Source of the DNA: an uncultured bacterium
GTDB taxonomy: Bacteria > Acidobacteriota > Aminicenantia > UBA2199
Assembly: GCA_965603365.1 (NCBI GenBank)
Contig: CBFDCR010000012.1
Span: 21,935 to 85,934, forward strand
Direction: 5' to 3'
DNA: 64,000 bases
This document shows, in pieces, positions 12,856 through 30,845 of this stretch (its first letter is position 1; every line of letters starts with the position of its first letter). The notes below the pieces were generated by a model that did no database searches, was not told the origin of the DNA, and worked only from the letters and a program-made list of their open reading frames with translations. A program made the position numbers and the translations under genes.

Positions 12856-13107
12856 AATCCAGACCGCATTAACCCCGCTGATTTCCGCTGCTCTTCATTT
12901 TTAATTAAGTTGCCTAAGTCCAACTTACCCGGCATTTCAGCCTCCTTCATCGCTGTTTCAGGAATTCTTATGGGTATTTATTTTCATAATAATATAAAAA
13001 AGTCAAAGTTAAAGAGATTATTTTATATAATTTTCAAAGTACAAGGTAAACCCAGGAAGGCCGGTTTCCCCAACTCCCCTGAAAATATCTCCGGAATGAT
13101 TTTTTGC

Positions 13108-17565: not shown

Positions 17566-17582
17566 CCAAACGAGTAAATTTA
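17566..17582. promoter_or_regulatory. palindrome CGTTTGG-aat-CCAAACG upstream of the TRAP operon (possible operator)
   Basis: Perfect 7-bp inverted arms read directly, about 100 nt upstream of the TatT-like start codon. Confidence 0.3.
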
Positions 17583-17689
17583 ACTTATATTATACTATAT
17601 TTTACGAAAAACGCTAATCTTTGGTCCATTTATCTTGAAATTTTACATAAGTTTAAACAATTCGGGGCTGCTGCCGAAGAGAAGTTTTT

Positions 17690-17719
17690 GTTGACTTTTT
17701 TGTATTATTGTTCTATAAT
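17690..17719 (+). promoter_or_regulatory. promoter module TTGACTTTTTTGT...TATAAT (copy 1 of a shared module)
   Basis: TTGACT at 17690-17695 and TATAAT at 17714-17719. The sequence through about 17745 is near-identical to the minus-strand module at 30790-30845. Confidence 0.55.
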
Positions 17720-17789
17720 AATAGCACAATGAAACAAAAAGAGAGCAAGTCAATCAATTTTGACAACATAAAAGAGGGAGGTTATCACC

Positions 17790-18092
17790 ATGATCAAAAA
17801 AGGTCTTATATTCATACTTTTCTTGTTACTGGTCGTCTTTGTTTCCTGCCGGGACAAATCTCTGGCAAATGAAGCTAAGATTGGGGAGAATATCCGCAGT
17901 GCCGTTGAACTGTTTCAAGCCGCGCCGGCCCGGGCGGTAGAGGGGCAAGAGAATCCGGCGGGAAAGGGTTTTAAATTACTCCTGGAGGCCGTGACGCTGA
18001 CCCTGCCGGATACGGATTTTCCCGATGAAGTGAAGGAGAAGATTCTGCTGGCCCGCCAGAAATTCCAGGCTGTTCCTGACATCTTTAAATAA
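17790..18092 (+). CDS. small lipoprotein; the reading frame continues after one in-frame TAA to 18308
   Basis: Signal/lipobox LLLVVFVSC, SD GAGGGAGG. ORF 18120-18308 is in the same frame, separated only by TAA 18090-18092. Confidence 0.5.
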   Translation: MIKKGLIFILFLLLVVFVSCRDKSLANEAKIGENIRSAVELFQAAPARAVEGQENPAGKGFKLLLEAVTLTLPDTDFPDEVKEKILLARQKFQAVPDIFK

Positions 18093-18433: not shown

Positions 18434-18685
18434 GGTAACCCACAACATTTTGTCGGTACAACGTCTCATTTTGCCGGTACATTACGACAAAACGGCGGTA
18501 CAACACGACAAAGTGGCGGTACAATGTGACATTTGTCCGGTACAATGCGATATTTTTATGGTCCGCGTGATATCTTTGCGGTACAACATGACAGAATGCC
18601 GGTACAATACGATATATTTCCCGTCCCCACGACATTTTACCGGAACAACACCCCATTTTGGCGTTACCACACGCCATATTGAAGG
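18434..18685. repeat. degenerate tandem array A, about 11 units of 21 bp (consensus CGGTACAAYRYGACAWWWTGN)
   Basis: Units start at 18454, 18475, 18496, 18517, 18538, 18579, 18600 and so on. The region is open in several frames on both strands, as expected for a stop-free repeat. Confidence 0.75.
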
Positions 18686-19138: not shown

Positions 19139-19166
19139 AGTATATGTATTTAACAAAAAAAGTCAA
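19139..19166 (-). promoter_or_regulatory. promoter TTGACTTTTTTTGT...TATACT for precursor 3
   Basis: On the minus strand: TTGACT (19166-19161), 16-nt spacer, TATACT (19144-19139). Shares the TTGACTTTTTTGT -35 block with 17690 and 20388. Confidence 0.5.
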
Positions 19167-19226: not shown

Positions 19227-19255
19227 TTGACAATTTTGTGATTAAATTCTATACT
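19227..19255 (+). promoter_or_regulatory. consensus promoter TTGACA-17 nt-TATACT
   Basis: TTGACA at 19227-19232 and TATACT at 19250-19255. GGAG at 19262 and ATG at 19272 follow. Confidence 0.5.
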
Positions 19256-19271
19256 ATTGCTGGAGACGACA

Positions 19272-19574
19272 ATGGCAGAAGTTATACGTATCAATGAAAA
19301 TATAAAAGATATTTTATTAAAACATACCCAAAAGCAGACCCCGGAAGAGAGTCTCAATGAGATATTAAAGAATGAAATCCACAGAAAGATTAAGAGATAC
19401 CTTTTGATGGTTAGACATTTTGAGAGGAAATATAATACTGATTTTGACCGCTTTGAGGCGATGAATAAAGACACCAGGATGGATTATGAAACGGAAAAAG
19501 ATTACTTTGACTGGGACATGGCCGTCACTGCCTTAGAAGATTTACATACGGAATTGACCCAACTCCAGCCATAA
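19272..19574 (+). CDS. hypothetical helical protein (antitoxin-like size and charge)
   Basis: 100 aa from ATG 19272 (MAEVIRINENIKD...). No family recognised. Confidence 0.4.
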   Translation: MAEVIRINENIKDILLKHTQKQTPEESLNEILKNEIHRKIKRYLLMVRHFERKYNTDFDRFEAMNKDTRMDYETEKDYFDWDMAVTALEDLHTELTQLQP

Positions 19575-19972: not shown

Positions 19973-20311
19973 TCCGGACAAAATTTCTCTGATGTCAGAG
20001 AAAATCTTTCCGACGTCAGATAAAATTTCTCCGATGCCGGACAAAATTCTTCCGATGCCAGACAAAATCTTTCTGATGTCAGACAAAATTTCTCCGATGC
20101 CAGATAAAATTTCTCTGACGCCAGACAAAATCTTTCTGATGTCAGACAAAATTTCTCCGATGCCAGACAAAATCTTTCCGACGTCAGACAAAATTTCTCC
20201 GATGCCAGACGAAATTCCTCTGATGCCAGACAAAATCTTTCTGATGATGTCAGACAAAATTTCTCCGATGCCAGACAAATTTTGTCCGATAACGGACACC
20301 ATTTATCCGTC
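19973..20311. repeat. tandem array B, 16 units of 21 bp (G[TC]CAGACAAAAT[CT]T[TC]TC[CT]GA[TC]) with 42-bp alternation
   Basis: Units counted by hand from 19973 (one 24-bp unit at 20225). Alternating variants are GTCAGACAAAATTTCTCCGAT and GCCAGACAAAATCTTTCTGAT. Confidence 0.9.
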
Positions 20312-20387: not shown

Positions 20388-20416
20388 TTGACTTTTTTGT
20401 TATGGTTCTATACAAT
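20388..20416 (+). promoter_or_regulatory. promoter TTGACTTTTTTGT...TACAAT for the propeller/rSAM gene string
   Basis: TTGACT at 20388-20393, 17-nt spacer, TACAAT at 20411-20416. ATG 20422 begins 6 nt after the -10 box. Confidence 0.5.
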
Positions 20417-20421
20417 ATGAA

Positions 20422-21471
20422 ATGATAGAAAAGAGGGTTCCGTGCATTGAGGAGTGGGAGGTATTGCCCAAAGCTGGGGCGTTTTATAAGAGAGTCACTG
20501 TGTTTATCCTGTTTGCGGTATTACTTCACTGTGCCTTTTATGCCAGCCAGGTGGATTTGCCGGAAGTATTGGCCCCTGCCTCTATCCATGTATACGGCGG
20601 CCGAATGTTCATTGCCGAAGCCGCGGCCATTCACATTTACTCGTTGAAGGACTTTAAACAGATAAAGCAATTTGGTCGGCAGGGTACGGGGCCGGGTGAG
20701 TTTTTCCGGGATACCAGACTCACCGTTTTCCCGGAGAGACTCGTGGTAAACACCTTTGGAAAACTGATCTTTTTTTCCCATGATGGCCTGTTGATGGAAG
20801 AGCACAAAAAAGCCGTTGAAATTATGTGGATATATCCGGTTGGCGATTGTTTTGTGGGGTCTGAGTTTGTACCCAGGGTTCAGAAAATCAACATCTATGA
20901 TGGAAATTTTCATCGTGTAAAAAATATCTTCGAGGGCTCGATCGGCTGGGTCTCATATTTCGAGAGCGGAACCGCAAAACAGGACCTCATTATGGTCAAG
21001 GATTACGCTGCACCGCATGTTTATAAAGATAAGATCTATATTTTTGATTCATCGAAGGGTTTCTTCTTTGCTGTTTTTGACAGCAGTGGAAAGAAGATTT
21101 TTGAGAAGAACATAGAGTATAAACCGCCGAAGGTCAGCGCCGACTACAAGAAGGAGAGGTTGAGACGGCTGGAAGAATCCCCCTGGTTCAAGAGTAGCAA
21201 AGATAGGTTTAATCCTGTATTCCCCGATTTCTTCCCTCCATACCGGTCGGTACGAATTTCAGATGACAGGATATACTTCGTTACTTATCTAAACATCGAC
21301 AATAAAGATGAAGTCGTCGTCACCGATTTAGAGGGCAATCTCATAAAGAAAACGTACATCCCCGCCACCCTTTACGACAAATACATCTTTACCATCAGCG
21401 GCAATAAGGTATACTCTCTAATTGAAGACGACAAAGAAGAATTATGGCAATTACTCATAGGAGATTTATAG
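20422..21471 (+). CDS. six-bladed beta-propeller-like exported protein (paralogue of 29758-30759)
   Basis: FGRQGTGPGEF motif and repeated beta-strand pattern; hydrophobic N-terminal segment VTVFILFAVLLHCAFYA. An alternative start is TTG 20464, preceded by GGAGTGGGAGG. Confidence 0.6.
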   Translation: MIEKRVPCIEEWEVLPKAGAFYKRVTVFILFAVLLHCAFYASQVDLPEVLAPASIHVYGGRMFIAEAAAIHIYSLKDFKQIKQFGRQGTGPGEFFRDTRLTVFPERLVVNTFGKLIFFSHDGLLMEEHKKAVEIMWIYPVGDCFVGSEFVPRVQKINIYDGNFHRVKNIFEGSIGWVSYFESGTAKQDLIMVKDYAAPHVYKDKIYIFDSSKGFFFAVFDSSGKKIFEKNIEYKPPKVSADYKKERLRRLEESPWFKSSKDRFNPVFPDFFPPYRSVRISDDRIYFVTYLNIDNKDEVVVTDLEGNLIKKTYIPATLYDKYIFTISGNKVYSLIEDDKEELWQLLIGDL

Positions 21472-21487
21472 GAAAAAGGAGGCATCG

Positions 21488-21673
21488 ATGATAAAAAATT
21501 TCTTTGGAGGAGTTGAAGAGCCGATGACCCCGGAGTCGGTTACCCTGGGTTGTGGTTGTTGGTGCAGTTGCGAAGGGGCCTGTGGCGATCAAAACGGCAA
21601 TAGTACCAGCATGACTGATTTGAATTGCTCACCGTTTCCTAAAGTTGCAATTATTTTGCCACCCCCAGCTTAA
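21488..21673 (+). CDS. Cys-rich small peptide, candidate rSAM/SPASM substrate
   Basis: MIKNFFGGVEEPMTPESVTLGCGCWCSCEGACGDQNGNSTSMTDLNCSPFPKVAIILPPPA. Strong SD AAAGGAGG 5 nt upstream. Lies 51 nt upstream of the rSAM/SPASM gene. Confidence 0.6.
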   Translation: MIKNFFGGVEEPMTPESVTLGCGCWCSCEGACGDQNGNSTSMTDLNCSPFPKVAIILPPPA

Positions 21674-21724
21674 ACTCAGATTCATTTGTTGTAAATCTAA
21701 GGCGACGAATAACAAAATCAACTT

Positions 21725-23311
21725 ATGCCACCACATCATATGAAAGTACTGGAAAGCAAAAATAAAGATAATGCTGACCCTCAGATTTGGGCCAAACTCT
21801 TTGAAATTAACGAGAAAAGATATTGTTACGATGTGGGGACTAACCATATTATGGAAGTTGATGATGTCTTGTATGAGGTCTTGAAAAAATACAATTATTC
21901 CAATAAAAAGAGGATAGCCGCAGATTTGTCATCCAGATATTCGGTTGAGGATATTGAAAGAGCGGTTGGCGCGGTGGACGAATTCAGCCAGGCCAAAGGG
22001 GGATTTATACTTCAAAAAAGGATTCGTCTGGCGTTTCCTTTCAGCCAGCGTGAATATAAGTTTCTTCTGGAACATTTTCTCAGTCATCTGATTTTGAATA
22101 TTACAGAAGACTGCAATTTACGTTGTAAATACTGTGCGTTCAGTGGGAGTTATAAATATAGAAGGACTCACAAAAAAGTTTCGATGCCATGGCCGGTTAT
22201 TCAGAAGGCAGTTGATTTCTTTATCCCCCGAACCGTTTTGAGGATAAATGAATTAAAGAGGCCTGTGTCTTTTGGCTTTTATGGAGGAGAGCCCCTATTG
22301 GAGCCAGGGAAAATGTTCAAAACGGTGGAATACGTTCGGCACAGATGGCCGGATATTTTCCCTGAGATTAATTTTGCCATCACCACAAATGGGACTTTGC
22401 TTTCCCGAGAAATAATTGACCCATTAATAAAGTATAATTTTGGGATTACTATAAGTCTGGATGGTTACAAGGAGTTACACGATAAGAGCCGCATTTTTAT
22501 GAAGGGAGGGGGAACGTACGACATAATAATGAAAAACATTGATTTAATTAAAAAAATTGACCGTGAGTATTTCAGACAAAGAGTATTTTTTGCTGGGGCC
22601 ATGTCCCCCCCATATGATCTTCACGGAATACTTGAATATTTTCGCAGGGAGTTCCCAAACCAGGAGATCCCAAATGTGTATAGCCTGGTGGATGAATTTG
22701 ACACCGATTTTTTCGATAATTTCGATATGGATGAAGAGAATAGAAAATATGCACAGCAATCCTTTGAAGCCAGATGTGAATTTATAAAGAAAAAAATGGA
22801 AGGTGAGGATGATCCCATATTATCTGGTTTTATTCAAGATAATACAATGGACATCCATAACAGGAAACTTTTCAGTCTCCCGGAAGCGACATATCCCAAT
22901 GGTTGTTGCCCCCCAGGATTAAAAAAACTTTTTGTGGACACGGAAGGAAGATTTCATGTATGTGAGAGGGTGAATTCATATTTTAGCATTGGAGATCTGG
23001 ATAATGGATTTGATATCCCCAAAATATTCGATCTAATAGACGGATACTCAAAAGCAGCCGATCACTGGAAATATTGCTGGGCGATCAGGTTTTGCAACTC
23101 TTGTTTTGTCTCCGTTATTGAGGGCGATCATTTCTCAAGGGAGAGAAAAAAGACAATGTGTGAGAGAACAAAAGGCGACATCTTAAGTCGGCTGGTTACG
23201 TATGTCTATCTGGCGGAGCATAATCCCCGACTATTTGATAAAAAGTATTTCAGAGGGGAAGATACGGTGGGGGATCTGGTAAAATACCTCCAGCAGAATA
23301 AGTTACATTAA
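21725..23311 (+). CDS. radical SAM/SPASM-type peptide-modifying enzyme
   Basis: ITEDCNLRCKYCAF (CxxxCxxC), FYGGEPLL, and a C-terminal Cys cluster (CCPPG...GRFHVCERV...CWAIRFCNSC) like the SPASM auxiliary-cluster domain. About 100-aa N-terminal extension. Confidence 0.8.
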   Translation: MPPHHMKVLESKNKDNADPQIWAKLFEINEKRYCYDVGTNHIMEVDDVLYEVLKKYNYSNKKRIAADLSSRYSVEDIERAVGAVDEFSQAKGGFILQKRIRLAFPFSQREYKFLLEHFLSHLILNITEDCNLRCKYCAFSGSYKYRRTHKKVSMPWPVIQKAVDFFIPRTVLRINELKRPVSFGFYGGEPLLEPGKMFKTVEYVRHRWPDIFPEINFAITTNGTLLSREIIDPLIKYNFGITISLDGYKELHDKSRIFMKGGGTYDIIMKNIDLIKKIDREYFRQRVFFAGAMSPPYDLHGILEYFRREFPNQEIPNVYSLVDEFDTDFFDNFDMDEENRKYAQQSFEARCEFIKKKMEGEDDPILSGFIQDNTMDIHNRKLFSLPEATYPNGCCPPGLKKLFVDTEGRFHVCERVNSYFSIGDLDNGFDIPKIFDLIDGYSKAADHWKYCWAIRFCNSCFVSVIEGDHFSRERKKTMCERTKGDILSRLVTYVYLAEHNPRLFDKKYFRGEDTVGDLVKYLQQNKLH

Positions 23312-23375
23312 TCGTGAATCCCGAAATAACGATCAATAGATCTCAAAATCATAGAATAGTTTAAAGAGGTTGACG

Positions 23376-25256
23376 ATGCCCAAAGATGGGATAAAACGAA
23401 TAGTGATGCATTGGATGCCGCCGGCAATGATTACGACCCCTTCCCTTTCCTACTCTATATTAAAAAGTTTCATGAATCAGCATGGGTATGATAGCGAGAT
23501 TATTTATTGGAATCAGTTGATATTTAAAATCATGAGACCATTCTTTTATGGTGGGAGGCTTCAAGATTCTGCTGTAGACAATTTATTTCTTGCACCCTTT
23601 TTATTGGAGATTTCGGATAAGTACAGTGACACCCTTAAAAAGAAAAGGGTTTTATCTTTTTTGCGGAGTAATTTATTGAAATTTACAATCAAGGAGGATG
23701 AAGTCGAAGAATATATTTGGGATATTAGGGGAAAAATCGGGCGCTTAGTGGATTCCATTCTGGCTGAGATGGAGGCCGAGAATATTTTCCTGTTCGGATT
23801 TTCCAGTAAATTTTTTCAATGGCTCCCCGGCATGTTACTGGCGGAAAAGTTAAAAGAAAAGTTCCCCGGGATTAAAATAGTAATTGGCGGGTTTGGAGAT
23901 CAGAACGCAGCCCGAGAAATACTTCACCTGTGTCGATATTTTGATTTTGCCGTGTGGGGGGAGGGGGAATATCCACTTCTCGGACTCTGCCAGCGATTGG
24001 AAGATGGTGGCAATCGTTTCGAGTCGATCCCCCGGTTGTTATATTGGGGGCAAGGGGAGGAGATTAAGGCCACCTCATCCCGCAGCCGCTATTTAAATTT
24101 TGATAACTATATGTATCCTGACTTTTCAGATTTTATCGAATCTTATAACAATGAAGAATTGAGAAAAAATATTTACTTTCCCATTGAATCCTCCAGGGGC
24201 TGCCACTGGAACCGCTGTAAATTTTGTACTTTGAATGTGGGGTATAAATACAGAACCCGATCCCCCGAAAGTATTGTTCGGGAGATTGAATTTATGTTTG
24301 ATAAACATAAAATACACCGTTTTCGATTTGCAGACAACGATATTGTGGGAAAGAGCATAGGGCAGTTTGAAAGATTACTGGAGATGGTCACTGCATCATC
24401 ATTGAGAAATCGGGTCAAGTATGACCTCTATGCAGAGATTGTCCACCACGGATTCAATTCCCGGCTTATAAAAAAAATGGCAGTCGCGGGTTTTACCCAC
24501 GTTCAGATCGGCTACGAAGCCATTACCGATGGCTTGTTGAAAAAGATTGATAAAAAAGCAGATTTCGCCGATCATATCCTTTTTGTAAAATTCGCTTCAA
24601 AATATGGAATTTCTATAACCGGAGCCAACATCTTACGGGGGATTATCGGCGAGACCGAAGACGACGTTCTGGAAGGTATTCATGATTTGACATTTCTAAG
24701 ATTCTTTTTAAAAGATGCACCTATTCAGTTTTATCATTATATAAGTGAGCTGCGACTTTCTGGAGGGAGCCGGTTTTTCCAGATGTTGAGCCTGGAAGAG
24801 CGTAAAAAATGGAACGCTAGCGCCATGACTTATTTTATCCCCCAGTGGTTCATCGTGAAAGATAACGATCGACGTTTTGGGCTGTTTTCCTTTTCCAGGG
24901 AGTTGGATAATAAAGTCGAATGGGAAAATTTTGAAAAGTTAAATAACTTTCTCGAAAAAACCGAGGTAACGTATCAAATACTTGAAAATAACGGGATTTA
25001 TTATTACAGTGAATTCATGGCCGGGAAGCGGGTGAATTATATCGTGTTCGATGAACCGGAATATTGGCAGGTATTAAAAGCTGCCAACAACGAGGTAAAA
25101 TCTTTTAAAGAAATATTCGCCGAAGTCAAGACAAAATTCCCCGGTATTATCGAAAAATATCTGGTTGAGATTATTGAAAAACTAAAAAATGATTTTTTGA
25201 TTTACTCCAACAAAGATTTAACGAGAATTGTATCAGTCATGGACACCGGTGAATAG
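23376..25256 (+). CDS. B12-binding-domain radical SAM protein (RiPP-maturation rSAM type)
   Basis: N-terminal Rossmann-like region, then ESSRGCHWNRCKFCTL (CxxxCxxC variant typical of class B rSAM). ATG 23376 follows AAGAGG; the track starts at TTG 23370. Confidence 0.75.
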   Translation: MPKDGIKRIVMHWMPPAMITTPSLSYSILKSFMNQHGYDSEIIYWNQLIFKIMRPFFYGGRLQDSAVDNLFLAPFLLEISDKYSDTLKKKRVLSFLRSNLLKFTIKEDEVEEYIWDIRGKIGRLVDSILAEMEAENIFLFGFSSKFFQWLPGMLLAEKLKEKFPGIKIVIGGFGDQNAAREILHLCRYFDFAVWGEGEYPLLGLCQRLEDGGNRFESIPRLLYWGQGEEIKATSSRSRYLNFDNYMYPDFSDFIESYNNEELRKNIYFPIESSRGCHWNRCKFCTLNVGYKYRTRSPESIVREIEFMFDKHKIHRFRFADNDIVGKSIGQFERLLEMVTASSLRNRVKYDLYAEIVHHGFNSRLIKKMAVAGFTHVQIGYEAITDGLLKKIDKKADFADHILFVKFASKYGISITGANILRGIIGETEDDVLEGIHDLTFLRFFLKDAPIQFYHYISELRLSGGSRFFQMLSLEERKKWNASAMTYFIPQWFIVKDNDRRFGLFSFSRELDNKVEWENFEKLNNFLEKTEVTYQILENNGIYYYSEFMAGKRVNYIVFDEPEYWQVLKAANNEVKSFKEIFAEVKTKFPGIIEKYLVEIIEKLKNDFLIYSNKDLTRIVSVMDTGE

Positions 25257-29757: not shown

Positions 29758-30759
29758 CTATTCATCCAGATTGTGCAGGTGAAGCTCCCACTCTTCTTCG
29801 TCCATGCTTTCTATGAGTTGATAAAGTTTGCCGTTTTTGACGGCAAAGGGATAGAGATCGGCGGAACTCATGTTTTTAAGGGGCAGTAATACCCTTTTCA
29901 AGAGTTTTCCTTTCAGATGAAATACCAGAATTTCGTAGTTTTCGTTCTCTTTTTTCCAGGTTATGGCATAGACTTTTTGGCCGTCGGCGGCGATCTCCCG
30001 CACCGCCGGGTAGCGGTCGGGAAATTTTATGGGTTTTAACATCTCGGAAAACTGTTTGATCTCGGGGTCTGTCTTTAAATAGTGGATGACCCGATTTTTG
30101 TCCTTTTCCGTGACTTTGATTCTCCGGTACTCTTTCGTTATGGCGTACAGTTTTTGGCCGTTTTCGTCGAAAACATCGATCACGAAGTCTTCTTTCACCG
30201 CGAGCAATAGCTTATCCCCGCAAATATCGGCAGACAGGGTTCTGGCAAAGGCTTTCGTACCCTTGCCCGGTTGAAATTCGACCTCCCATCTGGCTACCTC
30301 TTTTTCCTTTTTTACGGTTGCATCGTAGATGTTCATGGTGTTGTACAGGGTGCCGTCATCCACCACGATTCCGGCCCCGATAAATTTTTTCCCCAGCACC
30401 CGAAATCTCCGGTGATTGGCAGGGGTCCTCATCTCTTTGATAAATTTCCCCTCTTTTGTCAGGTACGAGAGCTTGCCCACGCTGTTGACGATTATGTGAT
30501 CAGCCTGGATGTCGATGAGGTAAATCTTATCCTTAAATTCTGCCGGGCCTTCCCCCTCCCGGCCGAACTGCTGGAGCAACCGGTAATCCTCCAGGGAATA
30601 GACAAAGACCGTTGTCCTGTCGGCCACATAGAGTCTATCTTCATCCACGGCCATGGCCCCGGGTTTCGTCAACTGGCTGAAGACCGCCACCCTTTTACCG
30701 AAAACCTGGGTTGAAAGTATAAAAAACAAGGCCAATAACAATAAAAGTAGTTTTTTCAT
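29758..30759 (-). CDS. six-bladed beta-propeller-like exported protein (paralogue of 20422-21471)
   Basis: Signal peptide MKKLLLLLLALFFILSTQVFG and FGREGEGPAEF motif. Start set at ATG 30759 behind AGGAGG. The track extension to 30879 has no support. Confidence 0.65.
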   Translation of the reverse strand: MKKLLLLLLALFFILSTQVFGKRVAVFSQLTKPGAMAVDEDRLYVADRTTVFVYSLEDYRLLQQFGREGEGPAEFKDKIYLIDIQADHIIVNSVGKLSYLTKEGKFIKEMRTPANHRRFRVLGKKFIGAGIVVDDGTLYNTMNIYDATVKKEKEVARWEVEFQPGKGTKAFARTLSADICGDKLLLAVKEDFVIDVFDENGQKLYAITKEYRRIKVTEKDKNRVIHYLKTDPEIKQFSEMLKPIKFPDRYPAVREIAADGQKVYAITWKKENENYEILVFHLKGKLLKRVLLPLKNMSSADLYPFAVKNGKLYQLIESMDEEEWELHLHNLDE

Positions 30760-30816
30760 GTTTCCTCCTGGACTTTTTAAATGAAAGCAAAGCTTTTTTT
30801 GTATCATTGTGCTATA

Positions 30817-30845
30817 ATAATAGAACAATAATGCAAATTTGTCAA
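30817..30845 (-). promoter_or_regulatory. promoter module (copy 2): TTGACA-17 nt-TATTAT, near-identical to 17690-17745
   Basis: Minus strand: TTGACAAATTTGCATTATTGTTCTATTATTATAGCACAATGATACAAAAA, compared with TTGACTTTTTTGTATTATTGTTCTATAATAATAGCACAATGAAACAAAAA at 17690. Confidence 0.55.

Follow-up and report, generated by a model that had tools for sequence, protein, structure and literature searches.

Regulators of the YtrA subfamily are proteins of 120-130 amino acids that are usually encoded by the first gene of an ABC operon and that regulate their own synthesis (PMC6746942, PMC4494728). The YtrA operator is a long palindrome of about 24 bp with the general form NyGT-Nx-ACNy, in which GT and AC lie far from the centre (PMC6746942, PMC4494728), and extra flanking half-sites are known in the GntR/YtrA family (PMC4494728, PMC6746942). 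In Staphylococcus aureus, the YtrA-type repressor PmtR acts on an operator within the promoter and is released by peptides that the cell itself makes (PMC5080381). Judged by sequence criteria, the two promoters analyzed here, P1 and P2, would belong with these YtrA-type systems (B. subtilis YtrA, YtrASa, PmtR), and operators of a YtrA-type repressor that are common to a few envelope genes are of a kind already well known. What the bacterial YtrA systems share with P1 and P2 is a small repressor of ~125-135 amino acids and a long palindrome with GT and AC far from its centre (PMC6746942), as well as autoregulation combined with one or two extra promoters and with envelope or exported targets (PMC6746942, PMC12772383). 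YtrASa of Sulfolobus acidocaldarius likewise has a tiny regulon, made up of its own operon and one separate membrane-protein locus, and an operator lying over the transcription start site, with a core palindrome and secondary half-sites that aid binding (PMC6746942). It differs in being an archaeal protein that forms a compact dimer and in having an operator core of 14 bp, whereas the core of P1 and P2 is 24 bp long as in bacterial YtrA operators. PmtR-PmtABCD provides a precedent for a peptide-responsive YtrA switch beside peptide-producing genes; however, PmtR controls only its own ABC exporter operon, and the link of P1 and P2 to the neighbouring RiPP genes is an analogy.

The window, i.e. 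the whole stretch of 64,000 nucleotides that was analyzed, carries two copies of a promoter block, each in front of a gene for an exported protein:

17691-17743, plus strand: P1 module, a 53-nt block comprising promoter, operator and the first predicted transcribed bases
30845-30793, minus strand: P2 module, the second copy of the 53-nt block common to P1
17691-17719, plus strand: P1 sigma-70-type promoter, TTGACT (17691-17696), a 17-nt spacer and TATAAT (17714-17719), matching the consensus at 11 of 12 positions
30845-30817, minus strand: P2 sigma-70-type promoter, TTGACA (30845-30840), a 17-nt spacer and TATTAT (30822-30817), matching the consensus at 11 of 12 positions
17790-18092, plus strand: predicted P1-driven gene, encoding a protein of 100 amino acids that has a signal peptide and a lipobox-like Cys, and starting 73 nt past P1
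29758-30759, minus strand: predicted P2-driven gene, encoding the exported six-bladed beta-propeller 2 and starting ~60 nt past P2
28688-29683, minus strand: gene of an LPG_synthase_TM-type membrane protein, downstream of propeller 2 on the same strand

Aligned at TTGAC, P1 and P2 are identical at 46 of 53 positions, while their flanks are unrelated; before the -35 hexamer and past ~53 nt the similarity is gone entirely. The preliminary description had called the two copies near-identical and had put P1 before a small lipoprotein and P2 before the second propeller; the sequences it quoted were found where it had located them, and the genes are as it described. Both promoters combine near-consensus sigma-70 hexamers and a 17-nt spacer with a gene downstream, and the genes behind them have Shine-Dalgarno sites, the promoters lying 70-85 nt upstream. 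The 100-aa protein behind P1 had no match among Pfam families. The exported six-bladed propeller family, to which the product behind P2 belongs, is much expanded: a protein search yielded 25 matches here and as many as 37 in relatives, mostly 30-40% identical to one another.

A 29-nt core of the block, ATTATTGTTCTATWATWATAGCACAATGA, is present in the window in two copies, where shuffled sequence gave an expectation of 0.00. Searching the whole 5.3-Mb genome (163 contigs of an assembly that is 85% complete) by BLAST and with degenerate patterns yielded no third copy, indicating that the block is not a dispersed repeat or MITE. P1 and P2 are thus the sole pair of their kind in 5.3 Mb, both at gene starts, and in every genome searched the module was present in at most three copies. 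The case that the preliminary description had named as fatal to its view, a high-copy repeat scattered regardless of gene starts, is therefore not what the genome scan returned. It had also extended the match through the -35 and -10 boxes and about 25 nt of leader. The boxes indeed match, and the leader is shorter than claimed: with the start site predicted ~7 nt past the -10 box, the shared transcribed stretch amounts to ~20 nt, most of it within a dyad symmetry.

The common core of P1 and P2 is a 24-bp palindrome, ATTGTTCTAT-N4-ATAGCACAAT, which is self-complementary at 20 of its 24 positions and has the half-site form ATTGT-N14-ACAAT. It forms the centre of the following predicted elements:

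17707-17730: predicted P1 core operator, ATTGTTCTAT-AATA-ATAGCACAAT; the -10 box overlaps its left arm, and the predicted +1 falls within its right arm
30806-30829: predicted P2 core operator, ATTGTTCTAT-TATT-ATAGCACAAT
17700-17737: P1 extended dyad of 38 bp, with an outer GT (17702-17703) and an outer AC (17734-17735) around the same centre

The arms are the same in P1 and P2, and the 4-nt centres are reverse complements of each other. From a position 10 nt past the -35 hexamer, the palindrome extends through the -10 hexamer to just beyond the predicted start site; on either side, a weaker outer box (GT or AC) lies 8 bp outside the inner one. The palindromic nature of the core came to light because BLAST matched the copies in the opposite relative orientation as well, and the hairpin into which the whole modules fold in silico (z-scores of -4.7 and -3.0) is due to the same dyad symmetry. 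In its length of 24 bp, its GT-N14-AC geometry and its degree of self-complementarity, the palindrome corresponds to the YtrA operator. Given that the shared part of the block is a palindrome of the type bound by YtrA, an ordinary regulon of one repressor and two promoters would account for it, rather than an RNA element or a repeat. We consider it probable that P1 and P2 are two strong sigma-70 promoters with a built-in operator for a GntR repressor of the YtrA subfamily. The common regulator that the preliminary description had postulated thus gains support from the embedded 24-bp palindrome, from the presence of the same architecture before YtrA-type genes across the family, and from the recurrence of the same target classes in different genera.

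The pattern TTGAC-N12-TTGT-N14-ACAA occurs at only three sites of this genome, namely P1, P2 and the promoter of a GntR gene on another contig:

Contig C41: operon of three genes encoding a 125-aa GntR protein, an ABC ATPase and a 604-aa membrane protein

The 125-aa protein and a 133-aa protein both match the Pfam GntR family (E = 1.7e-12 and 1.8e-12, respectively) and align over their full length with small YtrA-type structures in the PDB (3NEU, 4R1H, 6SBS, 2DU9/2EK5); their N-terminal GntR winged helix, C-terminal domain of ~50 amino acids and total length within 120-140 amino acids place them in the YtrA subfamily. Over 72 genomes of the family, the pattern gave 34 matches versus 8 for the reversed control, and ~19 of the 34 lie directly upstream of YtrA-like genes encoding 124-139 amino acids, most of which are followed by an ABC ATPase gene. 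A stricter pattern applied to 251 genomes of the class gave 28 matches versus 1 in the control. We refer to the family sites of the form ATTGTAYTA...TAATACAAT as type I and to the P1/P2 variant, ATTGTTCTA..., as type II. Type-I YtrA-ABC promoters, e.g. that of the C41 operon, resemble P1 and P2 in carrying TTGACA followed after 10 nt by a 24-bp ATTGT-N14-ACAAT palindrome that includes the -10 box. They differ in the inner bases of the arms, which read TTGTAYTA in type I and TTGTTCTA / TTGTGCTA in P1 and P2, and in lacking the outer boxes that P1 and P2 have; furthermore, translation of type-I regulators is Shine-Dalgarno-led and their genes are followed by an ABC ATPase gene, whereas the type-II gene is leaderless.

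Within the family, every well-formed palindrome located beside a regulator adjoins a YtrA-like GntR gene. We also scanned for the palindrome across Bacteria with one genome per species (185,579 genomes). Most hits were in unrelated contexts; five independent ones, from other phyla (one genome of Isosphaeraceae, three of Lachnospiraceae and one of Filifactoraceae), lie directly upstream of a YtrA-like gene. Other YtrA-like paralogues of the family (C3:83480-83540, loci L056-L068) show the same layout and N14 spacing with ACTGT-N14-ACAGT (or ACTGC/ACTGA) in place of the ATTGT form, and a switch of operator specificity among members of the family appears to involve mainly the second half-site base.

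In the sister species G001 and G002, the P1/P2 variant precedes a second YtrA paralogue of 133-139 amino acids, which is followed by a gene for a small exported protein. The start codon of this paralogue is an ATG inside the right operator arm, implying a leaderless mRNA. Counting these two type-II genes, ~19 genes of the family and the five genomes of other phyla, the motif lies in the own promoter of a YtrA-type regulator, the placement that goes with autoregulation. In G045, which belongs to another genus, the module stands before an exported propeller on one contig and before a small exported protein on another, and these are the same two target classes as in the genome analyzed here; the own promoter of the type-II gene of G045 has a good left arm and a poor right one. 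In G021 and G004, from a third genus, the module is followed by a small exported ORF, a propeller and the type-II regulator gene (gntR-II), in G021 across two contigs joined by a 36-nt overlap of 100% identity. Type-II regulators form a supported clade (96/92) apart from the ABC-linked type-I clade, and clade and module co-occur in 5 of the 5 genomes that have both. The implied type-II paralogue would thus be unlike known YtrA proteins in having no link to an ABC transporter and in being leaderless with its start codon inside the operator; its predicted targets, exported beta-propellers and small exported proteins, would also be unlike those of known YtrA.

The propellers behind the module are 37-40% identical to each other, whereas the operator is at least 90% conserved. 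In an alignment of eight modules, there is no variation in TTGAC, TTGT, CTA, two of the -10 positions, ACAAT or the outer AC. A cis element so much better conserved than the proteins downstream bears the mark of a binding site. A position-weight matrix for type II, built from six sites of other genomes only, scored P1 and P2 at 38.6 bits each in this genome, followed by the C41 operator at 19.3 bits and by all remaining sites at 15.7 bits or less; given this gap, the predicted type-II regulon here consists of exactly P1 and P2. Further sites of the form ATTGT-N14-ACAAT (13 observed versus 5.7 expected) and the top hits of the type-I matrix fell inside coding genes and were dismissed as chance.

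The module also holds a trace of the regulator's reading frame, as seen from the following features:

17729-17731, plus strand: ATG embedded in P1, inside the right operator arm, at the place of the leaderless start of type-II YtrA in the sister species
First codons after the embedded ATG, P1 of this genome (G000): MKQKESK
First codons, contig C21 of G045: IKQKEDK
First codons, regulator of G001: MVQREDR
First codons, regulator of G002: MAQGEDR

The ATG in P1 is probably a relic of the start codon of a regulator gene. Over the 45 nt past it, P1 and the G002 regulator gene match at 22 of 45 positions (p = 0.0012, uncorrected for 28 comparisons). These similarities weakly suggest that the target promoters arose as copies of the promoter that the regulator itself uses, including the first few codons of its gene, and such copying would explain the short "leader" that P1 and P2 share.

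As to which repressor reads P1 and P2 in this genome, the most likely candidate is a separate YtrA paralogue, the one of type II, as the associations in related genomes suggest. Searches of this assembly, which is 85% complete, yielded no type-II gntR gene, the best match being 41% identical, and relaxed tblastn detected no relic of it in the window. At the position downstream of the cysA orthologue where G001 has its type-II YtrA gene alongside genes for NfeD and SPFH, contig C68 of this genome carries a 327-aa transposase-like ORF. The sole resident repressor whose operator has the same outer half-sites, ATTGT/ACAAT, is the YtrA-ABC regulator of C41. The type-I matrix scored P1 and P2 at 22.3 bits versus 27.9-39.1 bits for true type-I sites, and P1 and P2 are the best intergenic matches of that matrix outside its own sites. 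Between the 604-aa permease of the C41 operon and the stand-alone propellers, BLAST found no similarity. We attempted to assign the repressor by its recognition helix, comparing regulators with TTGT-type and CTGT-type operators; among 32 regulators there was no clean determinant, and since the helices did not separate the two operator types, the regulator is not assignable from sequence. On balance we slightly favour a type-II gene residing in the unassembled 15% of the genome. Cross-regulation of P1 and P2 by the C41 repressor is a less probable arrangement, and that the two are orphan operators is a little less probable again.

In the mechanism that we propose, a dimer of a YtrA-type repressor would bind the palindrome, perhaps joined by another dimer at the outer boxes, and would block RNA polymerase at the -10/+1 region until a signal releases it from the palindrome. 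Expression of the small lipoprotein gene would thereby be switched off and on in step with that of the propeller-2 operon. What the sequences show is the architecture of the promoters, their uniqueness in the genome, their conservation and their genomic associations; from these we infer that a repressor binds and acts there, which repressor it would be in this strain, and that a signal releases it.

Two other promoters of the locus share part of the P1 sequence:

20388-20416, plus strand: P3, the promoter in front of propeller 1 and the rSAM string (20422-25256), matching P1 from the -35 to the -10 part (25 of 27 positions, allowing a 2-nt gap)
19139-19166, minus strand: P4, promoter of precursor 3; it has only TTGAC and a T-tract in common with P1, and no operator

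The preliminary description had noted that the -35 block recurs, and the recurrence is real: TTGACTTTTTTGT is found at 17691 and at 20388, and TTGACTTTTTTTGT at 19166 on the minus strand. From this it had deduced a regulon that ties the dispersed parts of the locus together, a view that holds for P1 and P2 and fails for the rSAM string (20388) and precursor 3 (19166), whose promoters have no operator; the matrix finds exactly two sites. P3 lacks the right operator arm and was not picked up by the type-II matrix. It is therefore not a predicted operator site, and it may be a decayed relative of the module. Given that neither P3 nor P4 has an operator, the module links two genes and not the locus as a whole. 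TTGACTTTTTTGT is present five times in the genome against 0.56 expected. TTGACTTTTTT, i.e. the -35 hexamer with the T-tract, is present 45 times against 14 expected and is thus not specific to the locus. Within the window TTGACTTTTTT was found five times against 0.06 expected (12996-13006 on the minus strand, 17691, 19156-19166 on the minus strand, 20388 and 29127), four of the five sites lying within 7.4 kb. This clustering is a local promoter "style" or a matter of shared ancestry, and the operator does not account for it.

The surroundings of P3 and P4 have further features. Back to back with P4 lies a promoter at 19227-19255 on the plus strand (TTGACA-17-TATACT, 11 of 12 consensus positions), which precedes a 105-aa ORF (19257-19574) without a confident Pfam family. 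A tandem array at 19977-20290, consisting of ~15 copies of a 21-bp unit with the consensus GACAAAATTTCTCCGATGCCA (79% matches), ends ~100 nt before the -35 hexamer of P3, and a shorter related 21-bp array is located at 18475-18525.

Several other readings of the P1/P2 block have to be weighed against that of a YtrA-type operator. The preliminary description had regarded the block as a 5'UTR module and possible sRNA target, and one may think of a block that acts as RNA, being either a 5'UTR target of an sRNA or RNA-binding protein or a leaderless short ORF that begins at the embedded ATG. In line with this, ~20 nt past the predicted +1 are common to P1 and P2 (GCACAAUGAWACAAAAA), the ATG (17729 in P1, 30807 in P2) is kept in seven of eight modules and serves relatives as the actual leaderless start codon of the type-II regulator gene, and in P2 it is in frame with propeller 2. 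However, the predicted transcribed leaders of P1 and P2 have no significant structure (z-scores of -0.3 and +0.6) and no Rfam match; scanning 12-34 kb against Rfam at E <= 1 returned only three sub-threshold chance hits to eukaryotic miRNA/sRNA models. Conservation is moreover symmetric about the DNA dyad, covering the untranscribed left arm and the -35 hexamer, the module on C21 of G045 has ATA in place of ATG, and the ORFs opened by the embedded ATG vary in sequence and length. Since the shared stretch past +1 consists of the right arm, the outer AC half-site and the codon relic, an explanation at the RNA level is not needed, and we regard it as very unlikely. The palindrome could also be the operator of another family (ArsR, Xre or another) and not of a YtrA-type GntR protein, an idea that draws on the absence of the cognate YtrA gene from this assembly and on the scan of 185,579 species genomes, in which similar palindromes were found beside ArsR-type genes in four Bombella genomes. 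The motif alone is therefore not proof of the YtrA family. Well-formed instances within the family of genomes are nevertheless always beside a YtrA-like GntR gene whenever they adjoin a regulator, the length of 24 bp and the GT-N14-AC geometry fit the description of the YtrA subfamily (PMC6746942, PMC4494728), and the type-II clade accompanies the module in all five genomes that have both, leaving an operator of another family highly improbable.

That P1 and P2 are merely a strong promoter duplicated in a recent local event, e.g. along with a propeller gene and its upstream region, with a palindrome devoid of function, would be compatible with the paralogy of propellers 1 and 2, with the -35 to -10 part that P3, in front of propeller 1, shares with P1, and with the local enrichment of TTGAC plus T-tract. 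Against such a duplication, the P1 gene encodes an unrelated small lipoprotein and no propeller, the sequence just outside the block is unrelated, and the module is absent upstream of all 16 of the 16 other propeller paralogues of this genome that were examined. The operator is in addition nearly unchanged in other genera, where it precedes propellers of ~38% identity as well as regulator genes, and we consider a functionless duplicate improbable. The two copies are inverted, lie 13.1 kb apart and flank an AT-richer RiPP region, as inward-facing terminal inverted repeats of a 13-kb mobile island with the RiPP genes would, and synteny with the sister species breaks at ~17623, ~70 nt upstream of P1. 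However, between P1 and P2 there is no transposase or integrase ORF, each of the two is a complete promoter correctly placed before a gene, and other genomes have single copies of the module before regulator, propeller and small exported protein genes. An empty site was not demonstrable in the sister genomes, given that they are rearranged on both sides, synteny breaking at ~17623 and continuing on other contigs. A mobile island bounded by P1 and P2 is accordingly exceedingly unlikely.

Some observations concern the edges of the modules themselves. The ATG in the P2 operator (30805-30807, minus strand) lies in frame 16 codons before the start of propeller 2 (30757-30759, minus strand), so a leaderless transcript could yield an N-terminally extended propeller isoform (MIQKKLCFHLKSPGGN-MKKLL...), and the ATG embedded in P1 opens an ORF of 47 codons in a frame other than that of the lipoprotein gene. 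A stretch of 47 nt (17576-17622) before the TatT / TRAP transporter operon shows 87-88% conservation in both sister species; it is adjoined by a terminator-like hairpin (17573-17555, minus strand), and synteny with these species ends at 17622.

Taking P1 and P2 as operators of a YtrA-type repressor, one may sketch a wider scenario, which we hold to be rather doubtful as a whole. A leaderless, lineage-specific YtrA paralogue of Aminicenantes would have spread its promoter and operator, along with its first codons, to genes of propellers and small exported proteins beside RiPP-type clusters, building a peptide-responsive envelope regulon on the model of PmtR; here the regulator would perhaps have been lost, leaving two perfectly conserved orphan operators that are read by the YtrA-ABC repressor or are permanently derepressed. 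What the predicted operators offer in any event is a concrete and testable regulatory link between two otherwise unannotated exported proteins beside an uncharacterized radical-SAM peptide cluster of an uncultured phylum. They also correct the idea that the whole locus is one regulon, the operator being confined to two promoters. For the YtrA subfamily, whose regulons usually consist of one ABC operon, the type-II systems would add a branch that is associated with propellers and not with ABC transporters, and they may provide an example of how a regulon grows through copying of the regulator's own autoregulated promoter.
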